This document shows, one piece after another, positions 203 to 22,795 of a stretch of DNA of 64,000 bases. Both the position numbers and the translations under genes were made by a program. The stretch spans positions 1 to 64,000 of the forward strand of contig JAUWOR010000009.1 in the NCBI GenBank assembly GCA_030612025.1, in the 5' to 3' direction. The notes below the pieces were generated by a model, which had not been told where the DNA came from, did no database searches, and saw only the letters and a program-made list of their open reading frames with translations. The stretch's first letter is position 1, and each line of letters starts with the position of its first letter. The DNA comes from Dehalococcoidia bacterium. Its GTDB lineage: Bacteria > Chloroflexota > Dehalococcoidia > GIF9 > AB-539-J10.

Positions 203-203
203 G

Positions 204-1737: not shown

Positions 1738-1965
1738 AATACCCCCTCGGCTGTTTTCTTTTTTGTGCAGTTAAGTTATACCCTATTATACACATCTTTC
1801 TGCTCTTCATTTTGCGGACTGCTCGGTGCCAGGACAAGATGCAGCCATGCCTGCAGACGAACAGCGTTCCGAACGCTGAAGCTGGAGATTCAAATCGTCT
1901 CACCCGAACTTTTCTTCCCCAAGGTCTAGCCGCATCGGTCAACTGAGATTTGACTGGAACCAGGC

Positions 1966-1994
1966 TTGACGACATACCTTTAGGACATTATAAT
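1966..1994 (+). promoter_or_regulatory. Sigma70 promoter of the MTase operon
   Basis: TTGACG-17 nt-TATAAT followed by GTAATA(A/G)TA-like tandem repeats. Confidence 0.7.
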
Positions 1995-2062
1995 AGTAGA
2001 AGTAATAATAATAGATGTAATAGTAACTCAATAATCAAACAGAAGGCGGATAAAGTATTTAC

Positions 2063-2305
2063 ATGGAGCAGATTGAAATCACCATTCGGGGTCATGTTTA
2101 CAAGTTATCTCGAGAGGATGTTATAAAAAGTGTATCAAAAATAAGCCCCGGCCCCATACGTAAGCATTATGTTGAAATATCTGGCACCTGCTATCCAATA
2201 AAGCAAGCACTAGCCCAAGTTTTGAGACTCGAAGTAATCGGCTTTAATAGCCAAGATGCTTATCACGTATTTCGCCGACTAGGTTTCCCTATTGGGCAGA
2301 GGTAG
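2063..2305 (+). CDS. Small SCO5918-like protein (resembles the ScoMcrA head domain)
   Basis: LSREDV...HYVEISGTCYPIKQ...FNSQDA..VFRRLGF pattern, recognised from memory. Confidence 0.6.
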   Translation: MEQIEITIRGHVYKLSREDVIKSVSKISPGPIRKHYVEISGTCYPIKQALAQVLRLEVIGFNSQDAYHVFRRLGFPIGQR

Positions 2306-2333
2306 TGATTTCTATGCAACTTAGGAGACAAAA

Positions 2334-3284
2334 ATGGTAGAGGACATTGAAAGACTCCCGACTCCGTATTATGTTACTGAATATGGAGCAGCTTACCTTG
2401 GCGATGCCTTAGAATTATTAAAGCTCCTTCCCAACAAATCAGTCGACTTGGTAATGACTTCCCCACCCTTTGCCCTGAATCGCAAAAAGGCATACGGCAA
2501 TGCTAGTTCTAAGGAATACGTCAAATGGTTTATGCCCTTCGCTAAGGAATTTTGGCGAGTTTTAAAGGACAATGGAAGTTTGGTTATACATATAGGTGGT
2601 GCTTGGGACAAGGGACAACCAACACGTTCGGTATACCATTTTGAGTTACTTTTGGAACTTTGTCACAATAATGATAGCGATTGTAAGTTTCACCTTGCCC
2701 AAGATTTCTATTGGTTCAATTCTGCCAAGCTACCATCCCCAGCAGAATGGGTGACAGTACGAAGAATCCGGGTCAAAGATGCTGTCGATCCAATTTGGTG
2801 GCTTTCAAAAAGCCCCTTTCCTAAAGCGGATAATCGTAAAGTCTTAAATCAGTACAGTAAAGCAATGCAGCAATTATTAAAGCGCGGGTACAATGCTGGT
2901 CCTCGACCTTCTGGGCATAATATATCTTTGAAATTTCAAAGGGACCTCGGGGGGGCCATCCCTCCAAACTTACTGGTGTTTGCAAATACTGAATCGAATA
3001 GTCAATATTTAAGGACTTGCCGAGAATACGAAATTCACCCTCACCCAGCTCGCTATCCGGTCGAGCTACCTGAATTCTTTATTAAGTTCCTAACTGACGA
3101 AGGTGACCTTGTCTTGGATCCCTTTGGAGGGAGCAATGCCACTGGGGAAGCAGCAGAAAAAATAAAAAGACAATGGATATGTTTTGAAACAGAAGAGCAA
3201 TATTTGAAAGGCTCCAAGTTCAGATTTGCATCTGATAAGCCAACTCCGATTTGCACTAATTCAATAAACTCTACTCTCCTCTGA
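2334..3284 (+). CDS. Site-specific DNA methyltransferase, beta class N4-cytosine (M.PvuII-like)
   Basis: TSPPF catalytic motif before the DPFGGS SAM motif; KLPSPAEWV, IRVKDA, HPARYP segments as in M.PvuII. Confidence 0.92.
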   Translation: MVEDIERLPTPYYVTEYGAAYLGDALELLKLLPNKSVDLVMTSPPFALNRKKAYGNASSKEYVKWFMPFAKEFWRVLKDNGSLVIHIGGAWDKGQPTRSVYHFELLLELCHNNDSDCKFHLAQDFYWFNSAKLPSPAEWVTVRRIRVKDAVDPIWWLSKSPFPKADNRKVLNQYSKAMQQLLKRGYNAGPRPSGHNISLKFQRDLGGAIPPNLLVFANTESNSQYLRTCREYEIHPHPARYPVELPEFFIKFLTDEGDLVLDPFGGSNATGEAAEKIKRQWICFETEEQYLKGSKFRFASDKPTPICTNSINSTLL

Positions 3285-3316
3285 CCTTGGATTTACCCCT
3301 TTAGCAAGCTATTCTA

Positions 3317-3373
3317 TAATTAATCTTCGATCAATTTTAAGATATTGACAGATTAATTATTTTATGCTATATT
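3317..3373 (+). promoter_or_regulatory. Sigma70 promoter with inverted-repeat operator
   Basis: TTGACA(3345)-17 nt-TATATT with an extended TG; ATAATTAATC (3317) and GATTAATTAT (3351) form an inverted repeat. Confidence 0.65.
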
Positions 3374-3430
3374 GATTTATAACCAGTTGTGCCTTAAATT
3401 AATATTAAGATATGATTAAGGGAGAGTTAC

Positions 3431-3652
3431 ATGGGCAAAAACGAATCTAAAAGAGAAGCATTTCGCCGCCTAGGGACACAACGAACAAATGCAGTTCTGG
3501 AGCGACTCCGCATTTTAGGACATTGCACAAATCCTCAGCTCTATGAATACTCTGAGGGAGATATCCGAAAAATGTTCCGAGCAATAGAAGCTGAAGTAAG
3601 GACAGTGAAGGCAAAATTCCAAAATTCTAGCCGATCACAGTTCAAGCTATAG
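3431..3652 (+). CDS. Small basic helical hypothetical protein, possible regulator
   Basis: 73 aa with RBS; KRE.F.RL...RTN.VL..LR.LG..N...YEY pattern. Confidence 0.75.
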   Translation: MGKNESKREAFRRLGTQRTNAVLERLRILGHCTNPQLYEYSEGDIRKMFRAIEAEVRTVKAKFQNSSRSQFKL

Positions 3653-3667
3653 CCATACAGAGAGGTA

Positions 3668-6412
3668 ATGACGATTCAACTTAGTAGTGCACAAGTCGAC
3701 ACCCTCTTCACGCTCCAGTCGAAGAACAATGTGGACAAGTTCATCCAAGATACCTGCCCTAGTGCTACTTGGCATAACCTTGGAGATAGAGAAAGCCCCG
3801 CAGCCAATGTAGAGGTGTCACCTGACCCAATCAACCCGTTAGTTGAAAGATTAGTCAACAGCATGGAGAGTTTAATCCAGCTTAAGCTAGAACTTAAACG
3901 TCTAGCGGGCAAAGGTCACCAAGGAATACCATCTTCGGTATTTGAGGCTGCTGAGAGATATTTTGGCGTTCCTCAAGGCCGGGCTCAGAATCTCTCTACC
4001 ACTGACCGACGACGGTTGGCCCAGAACCTTAAACTTATCCTTAGAGGAAAACGAGGAATACCTACAGTAGTAGTTCAAGACAAAGGGATTGGCGTTCACC
4101 CCGATTACATGCCTGATACGATTCTTTCTTTAGCAAACAGCAGCAAAGGTAAAAAACCGTACCTTATAGGTGCCTATGGGCACGGTGGCTCTTCTAGCTT
4201 TGAATGGTGCGAATATACCGTGATAATCTGCCGGAAGGAACCACGCCTTTTGAATGGTAAGCAGGACTTAGTAGGCTGGACTATAGTCAAGAAATCAGCA
4301 GAGTCGGGCGCTAGAGTCAGTGATTACCAATATCTCGTAGATGCTTCACGGAGGGTGCCGAGGTTTGATCCAAAGCTTTTGGGCGTCCGTGACTTTCCAC
4401 ATGGAGTCTTTGTTTGCCATATCGATGTGCGAGATACTGGTGCCTTTGGAACCCAACCCCCTGGCCTTGCCCCATTCCAAACGCTTGATTTCCGCCTTTT
4501 CGACCCTATCATGCCTTACCTACTGGTGGAAGAGCGGCCAGAATTTATAGGAGGTGCTCCACACAAAGGGCTAGATGGCTACAAAGGTGGATGGAATCGA
4601 GCTCTAGCAGGTGTAAGAGGACGCTTGGAGGGGCTCTATACTAGCCCGGAGAAGAGTAGGAGAGTGGAGTTTTGGAACAAGGGGTATACAGTTCAATTAG
4701 GCGGAGGTAGAACAGTCCGTATAAACTACTGGGTAATCGAAGACCTGGATGTTGATCCCATAACAAATATTCGGAAAAATGACCACAAGAGGAAGGCCCA
4801 ATACCTTAAAGATGGTAGCAGGCTATCACAAAGACCGTGTGCTGTTACCTTTGGGGGCCAAGTACACACATCACTGACTGAGAAGGTTTTCCGTGAAAGG
4901 AAGCTCAAGCGAGTCGGCGAGTCAGCAATAATCCATATCGAACCCGATAAAATGGGTGATGCCATCCGAGGGTTCTTTAGCTCCAATCGGGGAGAACCGA
5001 AAGAGCAAAGTGAAAAGCAGCTAGAACAGTGGATCGCCGAAGCGCTAGAGGTTCATATCCGAGACCTTAAGGCAATTGAATATCGCCGGTTTAATGCATT
5101 TCTGCAAAGAAGCAGGGCTCAACCGGATATTGAAGTACGAACGTTATTAGATCCAATGATACAAGAATTTCTAAGAAAGGAAATGACAGACCTAAAGGAG
5201 ACAGTTGCACGGCGTAAACTCCCCCACTTTAAACCAAAACAAGTCCCAACCTATCTTACCTTTGCAAACCCCAACAAGGTCGTGCAGCTCGCACCAGGGG
5301 ATAGCGTAAATGTCGTGGTTTTGACAAATGCTCGAGATGATGTAATGCCAAAGGCAAAGTTTGAACTGTCATTGTCCAACCCGAACATCTTAACAGCTAG
5401 CTTAACCAGTCACTATGCCGGTAGATGGATTATCCGCGTCTCGGCCTATCCAAATATGGCAACAAACTCGACATGCGAGATGAATGCCACGCTAATATGC
5501 CCAGGGGCGTGGATATGTAAAACTCCCAAACCCCTGCGATTCAGAGTTGTCACATTTTCACCACCCCCCTTATATTTGGGTTCAGACCCTCCTAGCCGGT
5601 TCCGTATCAAAACCCAGGGTGGTGAAATCAGACTGCAAGAAGGTAAACGAAGAGTCATCTGGATTGACACTGACTGTGTTGATGACCTTTTGACGCGCTC
5701 AGTGGATGCAGCTACATTTGAACTCGTCTCGCTTCCCTCCCCGGTCATATACAAGGGGTTGAACCAGCCTCTACGGGGTCAAATCGGGCTTGTGGTGTCG
5801 ACACCCATAGGCATAGCTCCTCTTGAACCAGGATACTTAGAAGTTCGTTTGAAGCTTGCTGATGGCTCTTACCTTTCTGACAGAGCACCACTCAAAATTC
5901 TCCCACAGTCGCCACGAGGGGGAATAATTACAGTCAGGGTTCCTTTCAAGTTGCCTAACTACGAGGTAGTTTATGTAAGTGAACAGCCCAGCGAAAATGA
6001 AAAATCATGGACAGCTATGCAAGACCCGTTTGGGCACGAGTGGGATAAGGAGGATGTAGCGGGATACAGTATAGAGCCTGACGCTCAAGGCAACGACAAG
6101 CTCTGGATCTTCATGAATCGTGATTTTGCTGATTTCACCGTAGAGCAGAGAATTTGGGCTCAGCGTGGCGAGAACTGGATGAGGCGAATGACAAACCAAT
6201 ACGACGCTCAAATTGCATTCCAATGCTATCAAGCATCTATCGGGAGGGGTGATAGACCACAACCTGACGGAGACTCTTTGGATCCATCAACGGGATACCG
6301 CTTTATCCCCCGGGAGTACCCAGAATACCGACCTGAGATGATACGAGTTGGTAAGACAATTCTTTGGGCTAGGAAACAGTTTGGTCCTATATTACAAAAT
6401 GATATAGTTTAA
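3668..6412 (+). CDS. Large GHKL-ATPase (TopoVIB/MORC-like) protein with beta-rich C-terminal domains
   Basis: ERLVNS (N box), DKGIG (G1), GAYGHGGSS (G2); proline-linked beta-rich C-terminal half. Confidence 0.75.
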   Translation: MTIQLSSAQVDTLFTLQSKNNVDKFIQDTCPSATWHNLGDRESPAANVEVSPDPINPLVERLVNSMESLIQLKLELKRLAGKGHQGIPSSVFEAAERYFGVPQGRAQNLSTTDRRRLAQNLKLILRGKRGIPTVVVQDKGIGVHPDYMPDTILSLANSSKGKKPYLIGAYGHGGSSSFEWCEYTVIICRKEPRLLNGKQDLVGWTIVKKSAESGARVSDYQYLVDASRRVPRFDPKLLGVRDFPHGVFVCHIDVRDTGAFGTQPPGLAPFQTLDFRLFDPIMPYLLVEERPEFIGGAPHKGLDGYKGGWNRALAGVRGRLEGLYTSPEKSRRVEFWNKGYTVQLGGGRTVRINYWVIEDLDVDPITNIRKNDHKRKAQYLKDGSRLSQRPCAVTFGGQVHTSLTEKVFRERKLKRVGESAIIHIEPDKMGDAIRGFFSSNRGEPKEQSEKQLEQWIAEALEVHIRDLKAIEYRRFNAFLQRSRAQPDIEVRTLLDPMIQEFLRKEMTDLKETVARRKLPHFKPKQVPTYLTFANPNKVVQLAPGDSVNVVVLTNARDDVMPKAKFELSLSNPNILTASLTSHYAGRWIIRVSAYPNMATNSTCEMNATLICPGAWICKTPKPLRFRVVTFSPPPLYLGSDPPSRFRIKTQGGEIRLQEGKRRVIWIDTDCVDDLLTRSVDAATFELVSLPSPVIYKGLNQPLRGQIGLVVSTPIGIAPLEPGYLEVRLKLADGSYLSDRAPLKILPQSPRGGIITVRVPFKLPNYEVVYVSEQPSENEKSWTAMQDPFGHEWDKEDVAGYSIEPDAQGNDKLWIFMNRDFADFTVEQRIWAQRGENWMRRMTNQYDAQIAFQCYQASIGRGDRPQPDGDSLDPSTGYRFIPREYPEYRPEMIRVGKTILWARKQFGPILQNDIV

Positions 6413-6575: not shown

Positions 6576-6811
6576 CTAATGCGCATCCCCCAAAAAGATA
6601 AACACTTCCCCCCTCTAATCCTTTTTAGCCCTTGTGTCTTTGCCAGGCATTCCTTGGCGTGGCGTCTGGAAGTGATAGGCAAATCGCTGTCTATATTAAG
6701 GGGATTGTCTTGATTCCTTTGTTTGCCAGTGTCTCGACGATATATCTTCGAGGGCAGCCGACATCTTAGTGGTTAGTCAATAGTCCTGAAGTCAAAGGAG
6801 CTCGCTTATGA
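6576..6811 (-). repeat. Composite gene-end repeat, copy 1 (gene X end, heptamers, DUF488 end, radical SAM end)
   Basis: Minus strand reads DVGCPRRYIVETLANKGIKTIP, then DLPITSRRHAKECLAKTQGLKRIR. Confidence 0.85.
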
Positions 6812-6822
6812 AGCAGCGGGGT

Positions 6823-6935
6823 TCACCCTCACCTTAGTTCCTTCGCTTTGCTTAGGACTAGCCTCACCTCCCTCCAAGGGAGAGGGAACAGGTCTTTTTG
6901 AGATTGCTTCGTCGCTTCGCTCCTCGCAATGACAA
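6823..6935. repeat. Cluster of REP-like palindromes
   Basis: CACCCTCACC...GGGAGAGGG and AGATTGCTTC...CTCGCAATGAC. Confidence 0.8.
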
Positions 6936-6989
6936 TAATGAGGAAAGGCCTGGCAATAGCAGAAGAAAAGGTGCCCCGGAATGACAACT

Positions 6990-7214
6990 GCATATTTGCG
7001 GTAGCCAACTTGACGGAATCCACCCAGGGTATCGCCCATTTAGTCGACAGCCATTAGTCCAGAAGTCAATAGTCCTGACCTCCTGACTGAGTCTTTATCC
7101 AGGCACTTTACTTTTGGGAAACGCCGAACATCCACAAGGAAGGTGATGTTATGCTCCTTTAGGAGTGATACTAAACCAGCAAACTTCCTGCCTCCGTAGC
7201 CAATAGTGAAAATT
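6990..7214 (-). pseudogene. Fragmented DUF488-family gene
   Basis: IFTIGYGGRKFAGLVSLLKEHNITFLVDVRRFP and GDTLGGFRQVGYRKY fragments, separated by TAGTC heptamer repeats. Confidence 0.7.
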
Positions 7215-7280
7215 GCTTGACAAAAGTTTCACTAATTTGTATAATTTCAACAAACGGTGAAAATACTATAATTGGTGAAA
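7204..7280 (+). promoter_or_regulatory. AbiE promoter with operator repeats
   Basis: TTGACA(7217)-17 nt-TATAAT; TAGTGAAA/TTTCACTA inverted repeat and repeated GTGAAAA. Confidence 0.7.
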
Positions 7281-7284: not shown

Positions 7285-8337
7285 ATGAGGGAGTCAGAGG
7301 TCGTAGATAAAATTCGAGAGAGACTTGAAGGTCTTTTGAGTGATATCCCCTTCCTTGAAGCAGGACAGCCTATCACGCAAATGTATTTGGAAGGTGTCCG
7401 CCCCGACTTGCTATTCGAGGTTATGGCAGGAAATCGCCCCTCGAAAATCATAGTAGAAGTGAAGTCCGTTGGGGAACCACGGCAAGTACGGTATTCTATA
7501 CAGCAGTTGAGGGAATACTTGACTCGGATTGAAGATGCTTACGGGGTGGTGGCTGCGCCTTACATCAGCAATGACACGGCTCGCCTTTGCAAGGGAAACG
7601 GCGTGGGCTATATAGACCTGGCGGGAAATTGTTTCCTGAACTTCGATAAGGTATACATCGAACAAAAAAATTACCCGAATCCGACTGTAGAAAGGCGGCA
7701 GCTCCGTTCCCTCTTCACCCCCAGGTCAAGCCGTGTTCTCAGGATGATGCTTGCCAATCCTAAGCGGTCTTGGCAGGTGCAGGAGTTGGCAGAGGAAGCC
7801 AATGTGAGCCTTGGCCTGGCTTTTAAAATCAAAGAACGCCTTTTGGATCTGGAGTATGCCCGTGAGGAAAATAGGAATATCCTTCTCAACCGCCCGGGAG
7901 AGCTTCTGGATAAGTGGGCAGACAACTATTCCTTCCGGAGAAATAAGATGTATGACTACTTTGGCTTTGAGGAGCCCAAGGAGATAGAGCGAAGGCTTGC
8001 AGGATATTGTCAGGAGAGAGAAATCCCTTATGCTCTAACTCTTTTTTCCGGTGCTGCCCTGGTGGCACCTTTTGTCCGTTACACCAGGGGATTTGCGTAT
8101 GTGGGCCAAGGGATTCGAGAGTTGGCAGAATCGCTGGAGTTGAAGGAGGTCTCCTCAGGACCAAACTTTAGCATATTAGAGCCCTATGATGAAGGGGTCT
8201 TTTATGGGAACAGAAGGATTGAAGGACTAGAGGTCGCTTGCGATGTGCAACTCTATCTTGACCTTGTGGGATTTAGAGGGCGTGGTGAGGAATCAGCCAA
8301 GTTTCTTCTCGAGCAGAGGATAAAGCCTCAATGGTAA
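7285..8337 (+). CDS. Type IV TA antitoxin, AbiEi family
   Basis: N-terminal PD-(D/E)XK-like fold (RPD...EVK), GYIDLAGNC, wHTH, C-terminal VQLYLDL...GRGEE. Confidence 0.85.
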   Translation: MRESEVVDKIRERLEGLLSDIPFLEAGQPITQMYLEGVRPDLLFEVMAGNRPSKIIVEVKSVGEPRQVRYSIQQLREYLTRIEDAYGVVAAPYISNDTARLCKGNGVGYIDLAGNCFLNFDKVYIEQKNYPNPTVERRQLRSLFTPRSSRVLRMMLANPKRSWQVQELAEEANVSLGLAFKIKERLLDLEYAREENRNILLNRPGELLDKWADNYSFRRNKMYDYFGFEEPKEIERRLAGYCQEREIPYALTLFSGAALVAPFVRYTRGFAYVGQGIRELAESLELKEVSSGPNFSILEPYDEGVFYGNRRIEGLEVACDVQLYLDLVGFRGRGEESAKFLLEQRIKPQW

Positions 8338-9179
8338 GACAAAGCGATTATGGGGAAGCGGAGGTTCAGGCTTGTTTGTCTGTATTGTTGGAGATAATGA
8401 CAGTCTTGGGTGAATTTCGAGAAAATGTTGTTATTGTGGGGGGAAACGTCCCTTCGCTTCTTATTCCGTCTGCTAGGGAGAAACACTTAGGTACGCTGGA
8501 TATAGACCTTGCCTTAGATTTTAAGCATATTTCGGATGATGCTTACAAGACAATTGTCAAAACCTTGAGCGCCAGAGGCTACTACCAGAAGGAAGGCACG
8601 CAACCCTTTGTCTTTCATAGAGATGTAGAGGATAAATTTAGAAACAAAATCACTGTGGAGATCGACTTGCTGGCTGGAGAATATGGTGGCACAGGGAAGG
8701 GACATCGCCACCAAAAAATACAGAACGCTCAAGCTAGGAAAGCTAGAGGGTGCGACCTTGTTTTCGATAGCGCGGTAAGAGTCAATCTAGCTGGCACTTT
8801 ACCAAGTGGTGGTCAAAACGAGGTAACCGTTAAAGTGCCTTCCATTGGACCTTTTCTGGTAATGAAAGGCATGACGCTCTGGGAACGGATGAAGGAAAAA
8901 GACGCCTATGACATCTATTACTGCTGCCGGAATTATCCTGGGGGTCTGACAGCCTTGGTGGAGGCGATAAGGCCGCTGGTAAGGAACAGACTGGCAAGGG
9001 AAGGCCTGGGAAAAATCAAAGCAAAATTTGCCATAGTTGCTGGAATAGGACCAACTTGGGTGGCAGACTTTCTAGAGATTGCAGATCCAGAGGAGGAGAG
9101 AGCCAGGATCCAGAGAGAAGCCTTCGAGCTAGTAAACGCCTTAATGGAGAAACTAGGTATCGAGCCCTTTTTAGAGTGA
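8331..9179 (+). CDS. Nucleotidyltransferase toxin, AbiEii-like
   Basis: VIVGG, GTLDIDL and KEKDAYDI motifs; overlaps the antitoxin. Confidence 0.85.
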   Translation: MVRQSDYGEAEVQACLSVLLEIMTVLGEFRENVVIVGGNVPSLLIPSAREKHLGTLDIDLALDFKHISDDAYKTIVKTLSARGYYQKEGTQPFVFHRDVEDKFRNKITVEIDLLAGEYGGTGKGHRHQKIQNAQARKARGCDLVFDSAVRVNLAGTLPSGGQNEVTVKVPSIGPFLVMKGMTLWERMKEKDAYDIYYCCRNYPGGLTALVEAIRPLVRNRLAREGLGKIKAKFAIVAGIGPTWVADFLEIADPEEERARIQREAFELVNALMEKLGIEPFLE

Positions 9180-9365
9180 CTTCTAGGTCACACCTATCCT
9201 TTCAGCCTGGGGCAGGTGGACTTGGCATAGCAGTGAATGTAGGCCGTTATGGTGAAGGTGGGAGAAAAGATTACTCAGATTACAGTCCTCTATATGTGTT
9301 CTCCGGAGTGATTAGTATTTGCTCAGGGTAACAAATCGTCATTTTGTTACAGCTTAGAAGAGGAC

Positions 9366-9547
9366 GATTAGCTAAATTGTGGCCTGTGCAATAAGACAGA
9401 CAACACCTCATCTTTTTTTGGTGTTTCACTGGAAATGTCCCCCTTTAATTGTCTGCCTTTTAATTAATCATCCCTAAAAGGTGGACATTGCCCACTCTGA
9501 CTTTTCTTAGCTCTTGGAGTTTTGCTTCTGCTGGGCGTTCCTCAACG
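9366..9547 (-). repeat. Composite gene-end repeat, copy 2 (radical SAM end plus downstream segment)
   Basis: Minus strand reads EERPAEAKLQELRKVRVGNVHLLG; shares TTTAATTGTCTGCCTTTTAATTAATCATC with the copy at 11.5 kb. Confidence 0.8.
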
Positions 9548-9789
9548 ATTATGCAACGGAGTATACTTCAAAATTATGACCTTTTATTGCGTGGAGGGTA
9601 AGCGCCAAGAGTTAGCAATGATTAGTATAAGGGCATGCTGCTATACATTTCGTCATTTTGTTCGTCTAGTTTGTTGTCATTATTTTCTTGCGTGCCATAA
9701 GCCTATTGACTTGCGAAAGTTTGGCTGGTAGACTTGTTTTAAAAGGGATAAATTTCTGGATTTCCGAAATGAATTGGAGGGAGGCAAAT

Positions 9790-10932
9790 ATGCCAAACAT
9801 TATGGTATCCCCATCTGCAGTTACGGTTGGACAGGCGTTAAAGCATGCCAGAGTGGCTATGGGCCTTACCTTGAAGCAAGTGAGTAAAAGTATGAGTATT
9901 GCCATGTCTACCATTTCGGAGATTGAAAGCGGTAAACGACGCATATCGGCAGTAGAGCTATATAGATTTGCAAAGTTGTATCAGCGCCCGATAAGTTTCT
10001 TTCTTGAAGAGAGCGAGACTAGTGCCTCCTTTGCAATTCTAATGCGTGCTGCAGGCACCGCCTCTGTTTCCAAGGAAACCATTATTAATTTCCATGAGCT
10101 GTGTAGAAGCTATCGAGATTTAAGAAAACTCGTCAGAGCACCAGTAATGCCAAGCCCGCCTGATTACTCGGCCTCCAGATTAACAACACTTGGCCAAGCT
10201 GAGGAGTTAGCAGAAGCTGAGCGAAGCTCTTTGGGACTCAATGGGCAGCCTATAAAGGACATTTGTGATTTACTAGAGGGGAAAAGGGGGGTCAAGATAT
10301 TTCATTTACTAGAGGATGCGGAAAGGTTCTCCGGTGCCTTTACATACGATGAACAACTAGGAGCTTGCTTCTTAATCAATTCGCACCATCCTAAACGGAG
10401 ACGGACATTCACAGTAGCGCATGAGTATGCCCACTGTGTTGCTCATCGAAATCAACTGGCCCACATTGATACTTGTCCTGCTTTCGAAATCAAAAATCCT
10501 CGTGAACGTTTTGCTAACGCCTTTGCCGCTGCCTTCCTGATGCCAAGACGTACCGTCAATGAGGTGTTAGGCCAATTGGTCTTCCCACAAAAATCTGCGC
10601 TAGCTGCCGAAGTTCTCGTTCATCTGGCCATGTATTTTGGCGTGAGTTTTGAAGCCATAGGCTGGCGATTGGTATCACTAAGGAGGTTAGCTCTTTCCAG
10701 ATGGGAGGAGCTTTTGAGCCAACAGGTGCCATCATCACCAACTGCCCGACTGCTCGGGTATTACAAGGAGGAAGAGCCGCCCGATACAGTTCCTCGCCAG
10801 TACAAATACCTGGCTTACAAAGCATATGGAATGAAGTTCATCTCTTTTGAGAAGCTAGCTGAACTTCTGCGGAGAAACTACTACGAGCTTAAGGAAGAGT
10901 TCGAGCAAGGAAGTCAGGAAGGCGATGAGTAA
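9790..10932 (+). CDS. XRE HTH fused to ImmA/IrrE metallopeptidase
   Basis: XRE motif ISEIESGKR; RRTFTVAHEYAH zinc motif; ERFANAFAAAFLMP; GGAGG RBS before ATG 9790. Confidence 0.9.
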   Translation: MPNIMVSPSAVTVGQALKHARVAMGLTLKQVSKSMSIAMSTISEIESGKRRISAVELYRFAKLYQRPISFFLEESETSASFAILMRAAGTASVSKETIINFHELCRSYRDLRKLVRAPVMPSPPDYSASRLTTLGQAEELAEAERSSLGLNGQPIKDICDLLEGKRGVKIFHLLEDAERFSGAFTYDEQLGACFLINSHHPKRRRTFTVAHEYAHCVAHRNQLAHIDTCPAFEIKNPRERFANAFAAAFLMPRRTVNEVLGQLVFPQKSALAAEVLVHLAMYFGVSFEAIGWRLVSLRRLALSRWEELLSQQVPSSPTARLLGYYKEEEPPDTVPRQYKYLAYKAYGMKFISFEKLAELLRRNYYELKEEFEQGSQEGDE

Positions 10933-11433
10933 ATGTCGCCTCTCAAGAAACCAATCGTGCTCGACAACGATGTAATCTCGAGGTTGTATAGTGCGGGTGC
11001 CTTGCGTCGAGCCTTAGAAGTTTGGCCAAAACTGAGTTTCCGTGTTACTGAACAAGTTATTGAGGAGGCTGGACAGTGGCACACCCAGGGACAAAGACTA
11101 GTAGCACTTCTGAAAGAGCTTGAGGCTAAAGGAATCCTTGCCTTCGTCTCTATCGATGAGACTTCTGAAGAAGAAATCTGGGCATATGCCAGGCTGCAAT
11201 TAGAAAGGAAACTGGGGCGAGGTGAATCTGCTTCGATTGCCATTGCCTGTCATCGGGGATTCGACATAGCAACAGACGACAGTGTCGCTGCAGATATATG
11301 TAAAGAGATGTATCCTTTTGTTTCTATCTTTGGCACTGGAACCCTGTTGAAGATGGCTGTTAAGGATGGTCTTATGACTCAGAATGAAGTCAATGCTATT
11401 CAATCTAAGATATATCGGGCAGGCAAGGCGTGA
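10933..11433 (+). CDS. PIN-domain protein (DUF3368/DUF4411-like)
   Basis: IVLDND, LGRGESASI and IATDD PIN motifs; abuts the ImmA stop. Confidence 0.8.
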   Translation: MSPLKKPIVLDNDVISRLYSAGALRRALEVWPKLSFRVTEQVIEEAGQWHTQGQRLVALLKELEAKGILAFVSIDETSEEEIWAYARLQLERKLGRGESASIAIACHRGFDIATDDSVAADICKEMYPFVSIFGTGTLLKMAVKDGLMTQNEVNAIQSKIYRAGKA

Positions 11434-11460
11434 TGTGTTGCTGGATAATACCCGCTGAAC

Positions 11461-11812
11461 AATCAGCCAAATTGCAGTCTGTGCAATAGGAGTGACAGCA
11501 TGTCATCGTTTTTTGGTGTTTCAGCGGGAATCACCTACTTTAATTGTCTGCCTTTTAATTAATCATCACCTGAAGATAAGTATTCCGCACCATGACCTTT
11601 CTTCGTCCTTGGGCCTCTGCCAGATATTCCTTTGCATGGCGCCCAGGATGGTAAGCAAATTGCTGCTTATGTTAGGGGGATTGTTTCGATGCCTTTGTTT
11701 GCCAGCGTCTCCACGATATAGCTTCGAGGGCGCCGACAGCTTAGCCGTTAGTCCTTAGTCGTTAGTCAATAGTCACGAAGTCAGAGGAGCTTGCTTATGC
11801 CGCGTTTGTAGA
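11461..11812 (-). repeat. Composite gene-end repeat, copy 3 (most complete)
   Basis: Minus strand reads VYKRGISKLL*, heptamers, DUF488 end YIVETLANKGIETIP, then RHAKEYLAEAQGRRKV. Confidence 0.85.
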
Positions 11813-11933
11813 CGGGGCTTCAGCTCACCACAATGACTTTATTGTATTCCGACACAGTGCTTTCAGGGAATGACGAATAGCAACAACAAAGGCAATGTTG
11901 TGCTGTTGTAGAAGTGCTACGAGGTCACCTATC

Positions 11934-12215: not shown

Positions 12216-12218
12216 CTT

Positions 12219-12694: not shown

Positions 12695-12700
12695 GCACCA

Positions 12701-15700
12701 TCACCTTGGTTCCCGCGTGGTTACCCCCAAGTGCCCTTCCCTCTCTGCTTTGCTGCAGAATCTGAGTATCTCAGCAAAGTTATTGACCCTGGTGAGGTTG
12801 TTGGTCTCCATAATCCCGTCATAGGTGACGTTGATCCACGGTTTTTGATATAGCGCGGTGAACTTCTCCGACATGGCGGCCACAATTCCACCGGGCATAC
12901 AGCCATGGGGCATCACCGATATCACACCGGCAAACCTGGGATTCTCCATGCAGTCGATTCCACTGCCTATGCTGAGGACTGCCTCGCTGCCGCATTTTGG
13001 TGAAAGCCAGCGGCTTGAAAATCCCAGCAGATGCGCCGTCGAGGGCTCTCTCTCATCAATCAAATCCATGAAGTGCTTTTCTACCGAGCGCTCTTCGTGC
13101 CCTTGTATCCGCTCCACTATATAACTGCCTATCATCTTGATGAACTTTCTATCCCTGATAGCATCCTCAACATGCCGGTATAAAATGTATTTCAGCCACT
13201 CACCCATAGGAGAAACAACAACTTCCAGACCGGCATCTTCGCACGCCTTTACCAAGTTATTGTTGCTGAATTTGTTGGACCGTAAGAAAATCTCGCCGTT
13301 AATACCCACCAGTGGCTTCCTGGGTATCTCAGGATCGATGAGAGATTTGAAGTCAGAGGTGGCCTGGCGCAGAAGGTCATTGAACGCTTCTTTCCTGCGA
13401 ATGCGGTCTGCAATCCTGCGTATGTAGTCCTCGAACAATATGTCTGTTGACCCCGCCTGTTTTTCATAAGGACGGGTGCGCCAGAGTAATTTGTATAAAC
13501 AATCCACCGCTATGCAGCCATTCCAGGCGAGGCGCATAAAAGCGAGGCGCCTAAAAGGGGAACCAAGATCCATATCTTGATAGGCATTGTTTGACACGCT
13601 GGTTCGCATCCCAAGGTCAATACCCATGTCTTTGAATATCCTGACCTGTTCTCCAGCATAATGCCCCAGGCGGCACGGGCCGTATGCTCCGGCCATAAAC
13701 GCCTCGAACTTCTTCATGTCGCTGCCATTATCATGATAGAATCTCAGAAAGCTGCCCAGGGTTACTCGATAGGGCAAACACTCGACACCCGATGTTACCT
13801 GATTGGCATACAGGAGGTCACGTTCGTTCGGCTCAGGAAGTACAAGTGCTCTAATTCCATAGGCTTCCATCGCCGCCCCTATAAGATCAACATGCGCTGA
13901 CATGTTGACTAACAGAAAAGTCTTGCTTGATTTAATGACCGTAGGCACTCCTCGGTAGATGTCTCCAGCTGAAACCTTAAGCTCTGTAGCAGAACGTGCA
14001 AATCCTTTAATCGTATCAACGAAGGCTTCCAGGCGGGTAACGATACCCGCTTCGGCGGCATGCTCGTCAATCTCCAGCTCTCCTAGAGGCTTGCCGCCCA
14101 TGATATCCTCCACCATTGGGAGTATGAATGAGTTCGGGCCGCATCCAAAGTTTGTCAGTGCCAATCCATATAGCTGTGGGTCTGCTGCTGTTATCACAGC
14201 AGCAGCAATATACTTGCTTTCATAGTGCCAGTATGGTCGATCCTGGTAATCCTTGGCATTCACTGTTTCAAGCGGCAGGAAGTCAAGCGGTATAGGCACC
14301 ACACCGAGCTGAGCAAGTTTCTCGGCTATGCCAAGGTTTGCTCCCGAATCCTGCGACACATAGGACCTGGCGAAGAGAACCACCCCCAGTTTGTCGCTCT
14401 GGTGCAGCTCCTCCAATAGCTTTTTGCCAAGTGCTGCTTGCTCTGCCTCGAAATCTTCCTGAGTTTTGATGCCAGCCAGGGCAGCCTTCTTGCTTTTGCT
14501 TTTGCTGAACCCCATCTTCACAGCAGCATCGGTAAGGTTCCTTATCACGTCCGCAGTGCCATGACTGAAATCAAGCGTGGGAATCAACAGCTGTTCCCCA
14601 AGGTTAACCATCTGACGTATTATGTACGGCGCTGCCTGTACCAGAGGACAGGAGTATTTCTGATTCTCATCCCCATCCATCTCACCCAGTCGGATAGCTG
14701 AGGGATAGAGAATATAATCAACGTCATCAAGCATTGCGGCATGACCATGGAGAAGCTTGAGTGGAAAACAACTGTCAGTATAGCTTAGCTCGACTGCCTT
14801 CCCGATGATTTCAGCGGTAGACTTGCTGGTAAGGACACATCTGGCATTGAGTGCGTTGAGAAAACCGATAAGCAGTGGAGCAAAGTCATACATCAGCAGC
14901 GCCCTGGGAATCCCCACCAAGGGCCCTGTACCGGAATCTGGCTTATACTCCCCAAAGAGCAATTTTTCCCGCTCGTCAAAGAAGGTTTCTTGCTTTGCCT
15001 GGCCGGCGGCGGCATCGTAGCGGTCGCACCTGCTGCCATAGTAGGTGGCTTTCTCACCTGGCATCTGCATTCGGGTAATAGTGCAATTGTTGTCGCATCC
15101 TTTGCAGGTGAATGTGGAAAGGGTTACTTCACTGTCGACAACCTTTTGGAATCCCTTAAACTTCGATTCCCGACCTGCCATTTCTTCTTCGGCCAGAAGC
15201 GCTGCACCTATTGCCCCACTTATTTCTTTGTGCTCCGGTACGGTTAGCGTTTTCCCTTCAAGTTCCCGGTGAAATGCCGACTCAACCGCCTTGTTATAAA
15301 ATACCGCTCCGGTGAGGATAACCTTGTCGCCCAGCCTTCTGTTGCCCACCACTTTGGAGAGATAATTCTTGGCTATGCCGATGGCAAGGCTGGATGTGAT
15401 TACTTCCAGTGGCACGCCCTGTTGCTGGGCTGAAGCTACTGCCTGACCCATAAAGGCGGCACACCTTGTTCCCAGGTCAATGGTATAGGGCGCTGCGAAG
15501 GCGAGATTGGCGAACTGACCATCGGTTACGGAAACACCGAGCATTTCAGCCAGTTCATCAATGAAGCTTCCCGTTCCAGCAGCGCAGGCTTTGTTCATCT
15601 GGTAGTCAACGACAACGCTATTTCTCTTGATGACAAGCTTGGAGTCCTGGCCCCCAATCTCAATGATATCTGCCTCAGGGTCCAGCTCTACACCAGCTCT

Positions 15701-19707: not shown

Positions 19708-21303
19708 CTAGAAACCGACTGCTTGTCCGTCTTTTCTGGGATCAGAAGCACCGCAATAGCCATCAGCTAACTTGTAGATTAACTGAGCCCCTCCAAACCA
19801 CCGACCTTTTCCAACTTTTTTAATTTTGTGACCTCGCTTACTCAAATCTTCCAAAACCTCTGGTTTAAAACCAGGCTCAAAAGCCACTTCCATATTTGGA
19901 AATACCTGCCAACGGGGAGCATCACAAGCTGCCTGTGGGTTTTGATGATAATCAAACATTCGAATCATAATTTGTGCATGACCTTGTGGTTGCATCACTC
20001 CTCCCATTACCCCAAAGCTCATTAACGGCTGGTCATCTTTAGTCACAAACGCTGGGATGATTGTATGGAAAGGCCGCTTTCCTCCTTCAACTTGATTAGG
20101 ATGACCTCTCTCCAGACTAAAACAAGCTGCTCGACTTTGTAGACTAATTCCCGTATCTGGCACTACAATGCCTGATCCAAAATCAAGGTAATTAGATTGG
20201 ATAAAAGAAACTATCATGCCATTAGCATCAGCTGTGGTTAGATAAACGGTGTCCCCACGCTCTGGGATGCCGTAGCCTGGATTCTGAGCCTTTGCTAAGT
20301 CAATCAGCTTCGCTCGTTGGGATAAATAGTCCCAGTTCAATAAGTCTTTATAATCTATGTCCATGCTGGATGGGTCAGAAACATATCGATATGTATCTGC
20401 AAACGCCAATTTCATAGCTTCAATTTGGAGGTGTAAGCTATCCGCAGAGTCTACAGGATAATCTTGAATATCCCGATGCTCAAGGATGCCCAACATAAGC
20501 AATGCTGCTATGCCTTGTCCATTGGGAGGGATTTCACATAAAGTAAATCCATGATAATTAATGGATATAGTTTCAACCCAATCGGCTTTATGGGCAGCTA
20601 AGTCTTCTTTCGTAATCAAACCACCAGTAGCCTTGGCATGAGCAACTATTTTATCTGCCAACTTTCCGTGATAAAAAGCTTCGCCCCTTGTTTCTGCAAT
20701 CCGTTCTAAGGTCTTTGCTTGAGCTTTAAATTCAAATTTTTCTCCTACCTTAGGTGCTCTACCATTTGGTAAAAATGCAGCGACAAATTCAGGAAAATCT
20801 TTATATGTTTCGGGGGCAGAACTCCATCTTTCAGCGGTTATCGGGGAAACCAGAAAACCGTTATAAGCATATTCTATTGCTGGTTCAAATAGGTCCTCAA
20901 AGGGTAAATGTCCGAACCGGTTAGATAGTTCTACCCAGGATGATACGGCGCCAGGAATGGTTACTGAATTCCATCCAAGTACAGGCATAAATTTAAATTG
21001 AGAAAACTGCTCAAAATCCCAAGCAGCAGGAGACCGACCTGAAGCATTGAGACCATGTAATTCATTCCCATCCCAAACAATAGCGAAAGCATCGCCACCT
21101 ATTCCATTCATAGTGGGCTCTACTACCGTTAAAGCTATAGCAGTAGCAATAGCGGCATCCACAGCATTGCCACCTTTTTGCAGCATTCTTAAACCGGCTT
21201 GGGCTGCTAAAGGTTGGGATGTGGCAACAATATTGCGGGCCATAATGGGCATACGCTTAGAGGCATAAGGGAATTCCCAACTAAACTGTATCATTCTAAT
21301 CAC
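19708..21303 (-). CDS. ggt: Gamma-glutamyltransferase family protein (YwrD-like)
   Basis: GGNAVDAAIA, nucleophile site GDTVY, KRPFHTIIP, SDPRKDG. Confidence 0.93.
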   Translation of the reverse strand: MIRMIQFSWEFPYASKRMPIMARNIVATSQPLAAQAGLRMLQKGGNAVDAAIATAIALTVVEPTMNGIGGDAFAIVWDGNELHGLNASGRSPAAWDFEQFSQFKFMPVLGWNSVTIPGAVSSWVELSNRFGHLPFEDLFEPAIEYAYNGFLVSPITAERWSSAPETYKDFPEFVAAFLPNGRAPKVGEKFEFKAQAKTLERIAETRGEAFYHGKLADKIVAHAKATGGLITKEDLAAHKADWVETISINYHGFTLCEIPPNGQGIAALLMLGILEHRDIQDYPVDSADSLHLQIEAMKLAFADTYRYVSDPSSMDIDYKDLLNWDYLSQRAKLIDLAKAQNPGYGIPERGDTVYLTTADANGMIVSFIQSNYLDFGSGIVVPDTGISLQSRAACFSLERGHPNQVEGGKRPFHTIIPAFVTKDDQPLMSFGVMGGVMQPQGHAQIMIRMFDYHQNPQAACDAPRWQVFPNMEVAFEPGFKPEVLEDLSKRGHKIKKVGKGRWFGGAQLIYKLADGYCGASDPRKDGQAVGF

Positions 21304-21425
21304 CTCCTATATAGTCAGCCCAACCAGGGCAAATTTCGTCTAACAGCCATATAAACGAACTCCGGATTCGTTTGGCCCGCCCAATCACGGTAGATGGTAA
21401 CACCTACTGTGGTAGCTTCTCAACT

Positions 21426-21566
21426 TTATGTTAAAGGAATTGTTTTGATCCCTTTGTTTGCTAGCGTCTCGCCTATATATCTTCGCTGGCAGCCGGCATC
21501 CTAGTCGTTAGTCAATAGTCCTGAAGTCAAAGGAGCTTGCTTAGGCCACGTTTGTAGAGGGGGATT
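21426..21566 (-). repeat. Composite gene-end repeat, copy 5 (gene X end plus DUF488 end)
   Basis: Minus strand reads IPLYKRGLSKLL*, heptamers, then DAGCQRRYIGETLANKGIKTIPLT*. Confidence 0.85.
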
Positions 21567-21680
21567 CACCCTCACCTTAATCCTCTCCCGTCAAGGGAGA
21601 AGCAACAGGTAATCTTGAGATTGCTTCAGCGCTGCCCCTTCGCCATGCTCAGGGCTTCGACCTCACCCTGGCAATGACAA
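21567..21680. repeat. REP-like palindrome cluster
   Basis: CACCCTCACC..TCTCCCGTCAAGGGAGA and AGATTGCTTC..GCAATGAC. Confidence 0.75.
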
Positions 21681-21682
21681 GG

Positions 21683-22795
21683 TCAATAATCTCCTCCTAG
21701 AAGATGAATATTGCCCAGCCTCACCCTTTTTAGCCCCCAGGCTTTTGCCACTGCCAGGCACTCCTCTGCATGACGCCTCGAGGTAGTGGGCAAATCCCTC
21801 ATCATAAATTGAGGGGCAAAGGCAAGAAGGGAGTAAGGGATGTCTGGATTGAGGGAGGAAATAAATTGGGCAATCTGGGAAACTTCTTGCTTGTCTATGT
21901 ATCCTGGGACTAATAAGGTGCTGGCCACTAAGAAGGGAGGCGAAGGCCTTTTCTTAGTATATTCGGCTAGAAGTTGAAAGTTTTCCAGGGTTCTCTTGTT
22001 GCTGACACCACAAAGGGCAATGTGGACTTCTTCGCTCCAGGCTTTGAGGTCAAACTTAATACAGCCACCAGAATTTAGGGAAATCTCGGCTGCCTGTCTT
22101 AATAAGGCTGGGTGCATGGAACCATTGGTCTCCCAGCAGATGCGCAGAATCCTACCTCTCTTCTTCTGCAAAGCTAGCCTGGCCACACGAATAGAATGAG
22201 GTAATTGAGGTGTGGGGTCGCCACCAAAGTAGCAAATGCAGGAAGTTTGGCCATCAACGGCGTCACTTAGCATTGAAGCAGTGACAGTAGCTTCCTTCAA
22301 TGCCTGACTGCGATAGTGCCAATTTTGACAAAATAAGCAATCAAAGGAACAGGCTTGATAGAAAACAGCCAGGTTTTTGTAACCATATTCAGGACCAGCG
22401 CGATAGGCAAAATCAGGATAGCCAGCTCCTGTGCCCCCAGGGCAAACCCAATCAGCCACGCAGTTAGTGGGCAGGGGGTCATAATACCAACTGACATTGG
22501 CTTTATCTGCCGTGGCGCCCTTGAGCTTATTTCCTTCATTGTAGCGTAGTCCACAATAGCTTCTGCCGTTCGGAGGCAAGCGGCATTCATTGACACAAAT
22601 GCGGCATTGGGGACCCGTTTCACTTTCGGGAGGATGAAGGGGAAGGTTAAACAGGCTCCTAGCCTTTTTATGAGCTTCCTCTATGCTAGGCAATACGGCA
22701 GCAAAGTCCCCCCGAATACAATCGAGACACACCCCTAATGCCTGGGAAGTAAGGCCGGATTCCCTACCACAGTGCTGGCATCTAACAGACAACAA
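21683..22795 (-). CDS. Radical SAM protein (PFL-activating enzyme/AmmeMemoRadiSam-like)
   Basis: CSFDCLFCQN CxxxCxxC motif; GGDPT; WETNG. Confidence 0.9.
   Translation of the reverse strand: MLSVRCQHCGRESGLTSQALGVCLDCIRGDFAAVLPSIEEAHKKARSLFNLPLHPPESETGPQCRICVNECRLPPNGRSYCGLRYNEGNKLKGATADKANVSWYYDPLPTNCVADWVCPGGTGAGYPDFAYRAGPEYGYKNLAVFYQACSFDCLFCQNWHYRSQALKEATVTASMLSDAVDGQTSCICYFGGDPTPQLPHSIRVARLALQKKRGRILRICWETNGSMHPALLRQAAEISLNSGGCIKFDLKAWSEEVHIALCGVSNKRTLENFQLLAEYTKKRPSPPFLVASTLLVPGYIDKQEVSQIAQFISSLNPDIPYSLLAFAPQFMMRDLPTTSRRHAEECLAVAKAWGLKRVRLGNIHLLGGDY

Follow-up and report, generated by a model that had tools for sequence, protein, structure and literature searches.

Decayed copies of a DUF488/radical SAM unit alternate with strain-variable defence cassettes in an origin-proximal island of a Dehalococcoidia bacterium

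The window studied here is a 64,000-nucleotide stretch, positions 1-64000 of contig JAUWOR010000009.1 (C11), from a Dehalococcoidia bacterium whose assembly (GCA_030612025.1) comprises 1.4 Mb in 19 contigs, has 45% GC and is ~96% complete (95.6%). Across positions 1,900-12,707, four self-contained cassettes of defence or toxin-antitoxin genes alternate with four decayed copies of a repeated unit. This unit is assembled from pieces of two host genes, a radical SAM (rSAM) gene that serves as the anchor and the DUF488 gene next to it. Sequence comparison establishes the anatomy of the unit, its single internal joint, the variable content and order of cassettes among strains, and strain-to-strain breakpoints scattered within units. 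The reading that we favor, with a probability of roughly 55%, is that cassettes are shuffled by homologous exchange anchored in unit copies without a dedicated integrase. Throughout, genomes of relatives are designated G (the source genome is G000), loci and metagenome contigs L, and contigs C.

Anatomy of the repeated unit

All parts of the repeat lie on the minus strand, as does the rSAM gene. The initial annotation described decayed copies of the rSAM 3' end in the same orientation, and four such copies of the last ~40 codons (R1 to R4, Table 1) are confirmed by self-BLAST and by tblastn with the rSAM C-terminus (E = 4e-9 for unit 4). Direct minus-strand repeats tie 21426-21816 to 6586-6931, 11459-11829, 9364-9547 and 12587-12707. 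Self-BLAST pairs 6692-6836 with 21427-21579 (81.8% over 154 nt, E = 6e-38), 6620-6810 with 11596-11799 (76.2% over 206 nt, E = 7e-37), 11667-11829 with 21426-21576 (78.0% over 164 nt, E = 7e-31), 9364-9517 with 11459-11612 (76.0% over 154 nt, E = 2e-25) and 12629-12707 with 21491-21578 (81.8% over 88 nt, E = 7e-18). The match of 6586-6703 to the rSAM 3' end at 21692-21816 extends over 126 nt at 69% identity (E = 8e-5). As had been suggested, divergence is not graded with distance.

Within the whole 1.4-Mb assembly, the rSAM-end and DUF488 parts are confined to this one locus rather than dispersed. Only the short modules at 21550-21682 and 6822-6957, which include an insert in unit 4 (6868-6931), are genome-wide repeats resembling repetitive extragenic palindromes (REP-like). 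They swamped a wide DNA search with the whole unit. An Rfam scan of 1-24000 found nothing at E <= 1, and the repeat therefore corresponds to no known RNA.

Two elements of the original description were revised. A suspected fifth rSAM-end copy at 1901-1940 resembles neither the rSAM end nor DUF488 (z <= 1.1 against 200 shuffles), and a tRNA-Pro(CGG) fragment occupies 1862-1905 instead. Six-frame translation does reproduce the three apparent gene ends of which the repeat was said to consist. However, the supposed third gene end, PLYKRGxSKLL*, is the interior of the DUF488 pseudogene, and it and GCxRRYIVETLANKGIKTIP are adjacent stretches of a single gene. The intact DUF488 protein of a congener (G001:C53) reads ...YQSGINKLLELADQGNVVLMCKECHDAGCQRRYIVGTLANKGIKTIPLT, with ...YQSGINKLLEL... 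upstream of ...GCQRRYIV....

As reconstructed from these alignments, the unit (0.2-0.75 kb) consists of a DUF488 pseudogene and, starting 9 nt beyond its stop, the rSAM sequence from codon ~332 to the stop. This order is a circular permutation of the native one, in which the rSAM end precedes DUF488. Owing to this permutation of modules between native site and copies, a first MAFFT alignment of the six stretches was not informative. A DUF488 open reading frame (ORF) finds unit 4 by tblastn (E = 5e-20, with stops), the DNA is collinear with the intact G001 gene, and the unit parts labeled D, T and U belong to DUF488 (PF04343) by homology over their length. T is the shared lesion described next and U is the 3' end of the gene. 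Unit 4 also retains more of the 5' portion of DUF488, starting at codon 2 (6992-7216), as does unit 2 for codons ~14-45. Units 2 and 3 carry an additional ~100-nt tail after the rSAM-end copy that matches nothing elsewhere except the ImmA unit of G028. An idea formed by eye that the tails end in the first DUF488 codons (~14/25 bases matching) is not claimed.

Between the two DUF488 stretches, 49 nt of the gene are replaced by a run of heptamers (GACTAAY/GACTATT-like) that contains in-frame stops. The run lies at 6773-6800, 11745-11800, 12640-12665 and 21505-21535 (minus strand). It is the most conserved part of every unit, and the number of heptamers varies among copies. A protein-binding array is one possibility for this run, and a repeat prone to slippage is another.

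In 10 of 13 aligned units, from six genomes in three genera (G000-G003, G005 and G010), the DUF488 stop is joined to rSAM codon ~332 in the same way. Two of the other three share a deletion across the joint, which affects unit 1 and its counterpart at 6373-6524 of G002:C111, and the third is truncated within the DUF488 end. Of 20 units on metagenome contigs that retain a U end, 14 are accompanied by an rSAM-end copy no more than 70 nt away; in eight of the 20, the copy is present from its very first bases at most 8 nt from that end. Because this joint recurs everywhere, in most copies together with one shared lesion, the unit most likely arose once. The joint sequence itself looks like a microhomology junction. 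Best-match comparison of the T-U segments yields no clean clustering by genome or position.

The native rSAM-DUF488 locus

Gene arrangement in relatives indicates that DUF488 natively follows rSAM in an operon. The intact 130-aa gene of G001:C53 lies directly 3' of rSAM, its ATG overlaps the rSAM stop codon, and a gamma-glutamyltranspeptidase (GGT) gene comes next. DUF488 ORFs 3' of rSAM also match PF04343 in G010 (E = 2e-8) and at L169 (E = 2e-9). The native copy is intact in G001, reduced to its 5' part in G002 and reduced to its 3' part in G000, where the pseudogene bears the lesion that is typical of the array.

A full-length rSAM orthologue occurs in 15 of 60 relatives. Among 28 other Dehalococcoidia-type loci, DUF488 is found 3' of rSAM in three (L068, L094 and, on the opposite strand, L075), and a search for extra rSAM-end copies within 10 kb of rSAM gave a single weak match (L073, E = 0.002). 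The repeat phenomenon therefore appears to be restricted to a few genera or to lie beyond the 10-kb flanks.

The rSAM gene is being lost in several related genera, either by splitting (G014:C10 and G040:C44) or by internal deletions that leave the first ~26-38 and last ~41-55 codons. N- and C-terminal pieces of the latter kind remain in G005 (G005:C89; L046, 230-440) and G008 (G008:C23; L045). The G005 deletion ends ~10 nt from the point at which the rSAM-end copies of the array start.

Two intact tandem DUF488 paralogues reside at G000:C16:20659-21491, and they are the only members that a PF04343 search of the G000 genome lists. Their presence may make the rSAM-linked copy dispensable, which would explain its decay.

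Layout of the island

In the direction of the rSAM gene, the order is rSAM, REP-like repeats, DUF488 pseudogene #0, GGT, an oxidoreductase fragment, an HD gene, DUF401 and a CoA-enzyme activase gene. Its stop codon (12701) is followed by unit 1, the AbrB/ParE-like pair, unit 2, the 166-aa and ImmA/helix-turn-helix (HTH) pair, unit 3, AbiEii/AbiEi, unit 4, the 914-aa protein, and a DNA methyltransferase (MTase) with two small genes. Small toxin-antitoxin (TA) cassettes (91 aa, MazF/MerR-HTH, HicAB) continue leftward from ~1900. The array had been placed directly downstream of the rSAM gene. In G000 it begins instead at the activase stop codon, ~9 kb away.

The fmt and dnaA genes lie just beyond rSAM, so the region adjoins replication origin genes. 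On the other side, synteny with G002:C111 places the end of C12 ahead of the beginning of C11. On this layout, the region is an origin-proximal plasticity island that extends from tRNA-Pro(CGG)-asd to CoA-activase...GGT-DUF488-rSAM-fmt-dnaA. Its left part is punctuated by tRNA-Pro fragments and its right part by DUF488/rSAM units, and each repeat keeps the orientation of its own anchor gene.

Cassettes vary among relatives

The description of the locus as a hotspot for defence cassettes is supported. The flanking asd and CoA-activase genes are conserved in G001 and G002, and the content between them varies among G000-G003 and the metagenome contigs. Close relatives differ in which self-contained defence or TA cassettes they carry, and the boundaries of these cassettes coincide with the repeat. 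Variable cassettes include AbiE, MTases, BrxC/D, BrxL, HerA, Mrr, MNT-HEPN and SocA-MazF.

Three relatives illustrate this variation. In G002:C111, AbiE and the 5' part of unit 4 are 95% identical to the window over 2124 nt, and the rest of the unit is 76% identical. Beyond it are sigma/SNase-LTD/LuxR, MNT-HEPN and RNaseH-like cassettes split by two more units (three in all), and collinearity resumes at the 91-aa/MazF block. In G003:C135, the end of AbrB and the start of unit 2 are 97% identical, after which the sequence diverges inside the unit and leads to SocA-MazF. The same contig carries BrxC/D-like, PLD, HerA and radical SAM genes before another full unit. G001:C117 has a type IIG restriction-modification gene beside a unit. 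In G001 the sequence after CoA-activase carries ArsM-like and patatin genes and no unit; there, G001:C58 is 95% identical down to position 12709 of the window and then diverges.

Contigs from Joint Genome Institute metagenomes, searched with a 21-nt unit motif, supply 32 additional stretches with other combinations. L174 has CoA-activase, unit 1, the AbrB pair, a unit and AbiE, without the ImmA pair. L168 has AbiE, a unit and then the ImmA pair, which is the reverse order. In L177, only a unit remnant separates CoA-activase from the 91-aa block, such that the array is almost empty. Other neighbors of units include AbiE of another type, BrxL, DUF499/DUF1156, Mrr, MNT-HEPN and HepT. Copies of the rSAM end that are 91-96% identical to R2 occur near MNT-HEPN or MNT-HepT, and not near the ImmA pair, in L158, L162, L164 and L166. 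The ImmA pair is found at 87-96% identity in other contexts (G028:C16, L155, L156, L163 and L168).

In other genera, units are found at the native site. G005:C89 carries fmt, an internally deleted rSAM, DUF488, a short rSAM-end copy and a sigma cassette. This cassette is 79-84% identical to those of G001 and G002, compared with 68% for fmt and 78% for the rSAM end. G010:C60 has rSAM, DUF488, an rSAM-end copy, MTase/HerA cassettes and HD. The array is likewise contiguous with its target gene at L160 and L169. At L156, the native rSAM and a DUF488 pseudogene are followed by the ImmA pair, and in G028:C16 this pair (87%) lies beside a longer rSAM piece of at least 230 nt. At or near the native locus in another genus, some cassettes remain joined to an rSAM/DUF488 piece (G005:C89, L156 and G028:C16), which fits the proposal that each incoming cassette brings a diverged allele of the anchor end.

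Breakpoints fall in and near the units

Synteny breakpoints were collected from BLAST blocks of at least 300 nt and at least 85% identity between 35 comparators and positions 1-13500 of the window. Block ends at comparator termini were ignored, and three overlapping loci (L152, L173 and L175) were dropped before counting. Twelve of 29 informative edges fall inside units, which make up 12.9% of 1900-12760, and 20 fall within 40 nt of units (15.8% of the interval). The remaining nine are at far cassette ends or inside the ParE-like gene. Within units, edges are spread over ~300 nt (6606, 6749, 6756 twice and 6894; 11560, 11633, 11815 twice, 11829 and 11866; 12639). Cassette junctions vary as well. 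They occur at DUF488 codon 2 for AbiE, at codons ~13-14 for the AbrB pair, and at several ends of the rSAM-end copies. The joint within the unit is constant, but cassette junctions and strain breakpoints are scattered.

Contigs from three other studies join different unit copies at homologous positions: 7118 to 11881/11883 (two runs), 6723 to 11778, 11711 to 6740, 11822 to 12703 and 9221 to 11614. Fourteen letters intervene in the first of these, and by eye they resemble a diverged copy of the same DUF488 stretch. Joints that appear to go back are equally explicable as other cassette orders such as that of L168. The best-matching run (X1), which is probably the source, has no alternative joints, and contigs of this run (records 6 and 7) extend across units 3, 2 and 1. 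Stretches of the window left uncovered by runs X9 and X12 do not enter the evidence.

No dedicated recombinase found

The report that no integrase or transposase is visible is upheld. No integrase, transposase or recombinase ORF is present in 1-24000, no recombinase is found among the array ORFs of G000, G002:C111, G003:C135 and G010:C60, and none of 51 scanned ORFs within 2 kb of metagenome units encodes an integrase or transposase. A genome-wide search, as had been advised, recovers two full-length tyrosine recombinases and one fragment. Both full-length proteins are Xer-like, reside in housekeeping contexts (uvrC/pimt and NAD synthase) and score far below the integrase_gron cut-off. No serine recombinase is found in the 95.6% complete assembly of G000. 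A few IS (insertion sequence)-type transposase genes are on its other contigs.

Proposed homology-anchored exchange and its alternatives

We propose that the unit was born once by an illegitimate joint, which could have been created by tandem duplication of an 'rSAM 3' end + DUF488' segment. Its copies would then serve as portable homology, through which general recombination of the RecA type may add, remove, replace and reorder the cassettes between them. Partner copies could come from the same array, from the native rSAM-DUF488 locus or from DNA arriving from relatives. Exchange at the same unit allele in two strains would swap the neighboring content. Exchange between different copies would delete, duplicate or insert cassettes, including by re-entry of looped-out circles. 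Exchange between array and native locus could have given the native DUF488 of G000 its array-type lesion, leaving that of G001 intact. Recombination itself, the participation of RecA and the travel of DNA from cell to cell are parts of this proposal. The initial annotation had offered either trans-acting site-specific or homology-anchored recombination. The latter fits better because crossovers are scattered along the unit, and no integrase is found in the arrays; the former fits less well.

Several observations count against this model. Copies within G000 are only 69-82% identical and are poor substrates for RecA, so exchange would have to occur mostly between near-identical alleles of different strains. 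G000 encodes RecA, ComEC and DprA, which says little because these genes are common, being found in 10-14 of 14 control genomes. The joint shared by all units would be expected of a site-specific system too, as would the one left junction, at the tail end, that the AbiE and ImmA-pair cassettes have in common. The array adjoins the CoA-activase gene, and a simple version of the model leaves its distance from rSAM unexplained. All comparators are metagenome-assembled genomes (MAGs) or metagenome contigs that are interrelated and in some cases possibly chimeric. Since they are related, the binomial values for the edges (1e-4 inside units and 2e-10 within 40 nt) overstate the support. The joints between unit copies in contigs of other studies have short sides of 21-98 nt at a 90% likeness threshold and are flagged as weak by the tool, such that they are supporting evidence only. 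Finally, the tRNA-Pro fragments make it very likely that integrase-type accretion acted in the same island.

This last point bears on a less probable alternative, in which units are attL/attR remnants of integrase-less elements, akin to cis-mobilizable elements (CIMEs), that were inserted serially by a site-specific recombinase. The attP site would correspond to the DUF488-stop/rSAM-332 joint and attB to the matching place in rSAM, with an integrase that has been lost or acts in trans (an Xer-type enzyme or one from an unassembled element). Direct repeats of a target gene 3' end at element borders are the hallmark of tandem accretion, and the island has both four rSAM-end copies and five tRNA-Pro fragments, the latter being a classic mark of integrase-made tandem islands. 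The single joint, the one left junction for two cassettes, and the arrays that directly follow rSAM-DUF488 at the native loci of G005:C89, G010:C60, L160 and L169 would also be explained. However, a cognate integrase is missing from the examined arrays and the 51 metagenome ORFs, and the genome offers only Xer-like enzymes. Cassette junctions inside the unit differ, strain-to-strain breakpoints are scattered, and the array is not contiguous with rSAM in this genus. The longer rSAM piece in G028:C16 demonstrates that the codon-332 boundary is not universal.

It is unlikely that units are passive scars, that is, inert leftovers of old duplications and deletions among which cassettes move by illegitimate recombination or by exchange through conserved flanks. 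Decay that leaves gene termini is common here, as the rSAM pieces of G005 and G008 and the split genes of G014 and G040 attest. The native DUF488 also differs in state between genomes, the joint resembles a microhomology junction, and the copies seem too diverged to recombine easily. Inert scars would not account for the crowding of edges at units or for joints in other populations that connect homologous positions of different copies. R2-like copies beside MNT-HEPN and MNT-HepT point the same way, and the array-type lesion in the native pseudogene of G000, set against the intact gene of G001, implies exchange between array and native site.

A more elaborate possibility, which we consider quite improbable, is that the unit is a working recombination site of an integrase-less cassette system. 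Cassettes bounded by units would loop out and re-enter at another unit or at the native rSAM gene, with host Xer-type enzymes or RecA acting on the joint and heptamer segment. Such a system would amount to a chromosomal counterpart of an integron for defence genes, assembled from a piece of an operon that has been domesticated.

Least probable by far is an assembly artefact that strings together alleles of one variable site in a mixed population: although the genome is a MAG, its contig begins inside the island and Logan contigs of the best-matching run break at the REP insert of unit 4, copies that are 69-82% identical with nearly no long exact words leave no basis for a de Bruijn graph mis-join, run X1 contigs bridge three units, and independent samples have two or three tandem units per contig (G002:C111, G003:C135, L162 and L174).

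Relation to known systems

The locus is best read as a variant of both tandem anchor-repeat (accretion) islands and core defence hotspots. A related concept beside the latter is that of the minimal mobile elements of Neisseria. Narrow word searches of the open-access literature found no description of a flank-derived pseudogene unit between defence cassettes, although one may exist.

The likeness to an integron that had been proposed is loose, and the region is not an integron. It shares with integrons an array of exchangeable single-function cassettes with a recurring element between them. In contrast, there is neither an intI gene nor an attI site, no recombinase ORF occurs in 1-24000, Xer-like enzymes are the only candidates in the genome, and what recurs is a fragment of a pseudogene. 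Hairpins similar to attC are also lacking: none of 16 inverted-repeat pairs in 1-24000 has both arms in one unit, as judged from pairs only and without folding. Instead of being promoterless and uniformly oriented, the cassettes have promoter-like sites of their own and occur in both orientations, with one on the strand opposite to the others.

The closest precedents are the high-plasticity regions of Dehalococcoides, which the portions of PMC2764846 and PMC3146451 drawn on here describe as tandem islands anchored at ssrA or tRNA genes. The repeat is ~20 bp of ssrA (58 bp for a tRNA), 16 islands have a serine-integrase module (DsiB), and the cargo is rdhA (McMurdie 2009, PMC2764846; McMurdie 2011, PMC3146451). 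Some ssrA islands lack an integrase (PMC3146451). The present island belongs to the same class of bacteria, lies near the origin, has a tRNA at its border and consists of tandem islands split by direct repeats of anchor-gene 3' ends; the tRNA-Pro fragments of its left half fit this type directly. Unlike those islands as far as these accounts go, it has a composite repeat of 0.2-0.75 kb, no integrase that we found, scattered breakpoints, and defence and TA cargo rather than rdhA. It thereby carries the picture of a 'high plasticity region' near the origin over to a distant relative that does not dehalogenate and in which the cargo consists of defence genes.

Accretion of CIMEs and integrative mobilizable elements by site-specific recombination is covered by Guedon et al. 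2017 (PMC5704250). CIMEs as defined there have functional attL/attR sites on which a related integrase acts, whereas no such integrase and no constant boundaries are found here. Prophage e14 offers another parallel, since it supplies a substitute icd 3' end and leaves a 163-bp pseudo-icd (PMC6379469); in both cases a diverged copy of ~120-160 nt of a protein gene 3' end lies at the far border of the inserted DNA. In the relevant section of that paper, e14 is a single element with its own integrase that is contiguous with its target, and it involves no second pseudogene and no array.

Core defence hotspots of Pseudomonas aeruginosa are similarly defence-rich, variable regions between conserved core genes (Johnson et al. 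2023, PMC10250203). A proline tRNA borders one of them, and 29-47% have no mobile gene. Johnson et al. propose that a target site seeds a hotspot, that inserts bring additional target sites, and that transfer proceeds through flank homology. The portions of their account used here describe no internal repeat derived from a flank; in the present locus, copies of a flank-derived unit separate the cassettes and contain the breakpoints. The same paper poses as an open question by what means chromosomal defence hotspots that lack mobility genes acquire and reshuffle their systems (PMC10250203). This locus is a readable record for that question. An alignable, datable, flank-derived pseudogene unit brackets each cassette, so crossover points, donor lineages and the order of events could be read from sequence alone across many uncultured Dehalococcoidia populations. 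If units prove to be active sites and not passive homology, they would represent a new kind of cassette platform.

tRNA-Pro fragments in the left part

From asd to ~1900, five decayed direct copies of tRNA-Pro(CGG) (reaching C12:165123 on that contig) punctuate TA cassettes that include HepT/MNT, HicAB, MerR-MazF and others. The fragment at 1862-1905 is the last of the five, and relatives diverge from the window at 1879-1907. ARAGORN finds no tRNA within the region of the window itself. The asd gene sits between the tRNA-Pro gene and the first fragment, and it looks essential. A 91-aa, Lys/Glu-rich protein of no family (1462-1737, minus strand) is always at the boundary between the part with tRNA fragments and the part with units. 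It is 88-92% identical in G001, G002, G003 and one metagenome contig.

Cassette genes and neighbors

Table 1. Positions of the units, cassettes, anchor genes and other features (window coordinates unless a contig is named)
Feature	Position	Strand	Remarks
tRNA-Pro(CGG) gene	G000:C12:159649-159725		just before asd
Three further tRNA-Pro fragments	about C12:163424, 164414, 165060		
Decayed tRNA-Pro(CGG) copy	406..465	+	between HicAB and MerR-MazF cassettes
tRNA-Pro(CGG) fragment, tRNA positions 27-71	1862..1905	+	3' fragment; 36/44 identities; z 7.2
80-aa protein, type II DNA methyltransferase, 73-aa and 914-aa proteins	1966..6412	+	methyltransferase 2334-3284
Unit 4	6586..7216	-	near-whole DUF488 pseudogene from codon 2 (6692-7216); R4 6586-6703
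AbiEi (350 aa) and AbiEii-like (282 aa)	7285..9179	+	Pfam PF09952 E 5e-10; AbiEii E 0.0016 (weak)
Unit 3	9364..9547	-	R3 9465-9547; tail 9364-9465; no DUF488 part
HTH + ImmA/IrrE peptidase protein (414 aa, RmrA-like) and 166-aa partner	9688..11433	+	Pfam PF06114, PF01381
Unit 2	11459..11920	-	DUF488 codons ~14-45 at 11853-11920; T + U 11667-11829; R2 11560-11662; tail 11459-11560
AbrB/MazE-type antitoxin and 86-aa weakly ParE-like protein	11934..12479	-	antitoxin 11934-12215; ParE-like 12219-12479
Unit 1	12587..12707	-	DUF488 remnant 12629-12707; R1 12587-12627; deletion across joint
CoA-enzyme activase gene, 1395 aa	12701..16888	-	Pfam and NCBIfam; stop codon is right border of cassette array
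GGT gene	19708..21303	-	Pfam PF01019
DUF488 pseudogene #0, native site	21426..21579	-	3' half only: shared heptamer lesion (T) and 3' end (U)
REP-like short dispersed repeats	21585..21682		between rSAM stop and pseudogene #0; dozens of copies on 13 other contigs
R0, source segment (last ~130 nt of rSAM)	21683-21815	-	
rSAM gene, 370 aa, anchor	21683..22795	-	Pfam PF04055 E 3e-15
Promoter-like sites	7217-7245, 1966-1994, 3345-3373	+	AbiEi 12/12 (perfect)
Promoter-like site	12537-12509	-	AbrB pair 11/12

Among the names first given to the cassette genes, Pfam supports MTase (PF01555, E = 6e-42; also PADLOC MTase_II, E = 1e-115), AbiEi, ImmA/HTH (PADLOC RmrA, E = 6e-27) and AbrB/MazE (PF04014, E = 6e-13). 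Matches for AbiEii and for the ParE-like protein (ParE_like, E = 0.008) are weak, and the proteins labeled GHKL (914 aa) and PIN (166 aa) find no Pfam or NCBIfam match. In PADLOC, the 166-aa protein has only weak matches to PDC-S70 (E = 3e-4). The 914-aa protein (3668-6412, plus strand) matches nothing in Pfam, NCBIfam, PADLOC or PDB sequences. On visual inspection, it contains DxGxG and GxxGxGG-like motifs that are compatible with a GHKL ATPase. Its place beside the MTase makes it a candidate effector of an unclassified restriction-like system. The AbiE cassette is 95% identical in G002:C111.

The GGT gene and a 67-aa oxidoreductase C-terminal fragment (19305-19508) form a block (window 19207-21425) that is a strain-variable insert right after DUF488. 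The block is absent from L159, which is 96% identical on both sides and has rSAM, a DUF488 pseudogene and the HD gene, and other genes take its place in G010 and G014. Therefore GGT, although a 'metabolic' gene, is itself a variable insert. The best NCBIfam match of the anchor rSAM protein is the AmmeMemoRadiSam rSAM family, far below its cut-off.

Sites that match sigma-70-like promoters in 11-12 of 12 positions lie just upstream of four cassette-leading genes, as consensus matches only. The site in front of AbiEi begins one base past the end of the DUF488 pseudogene.

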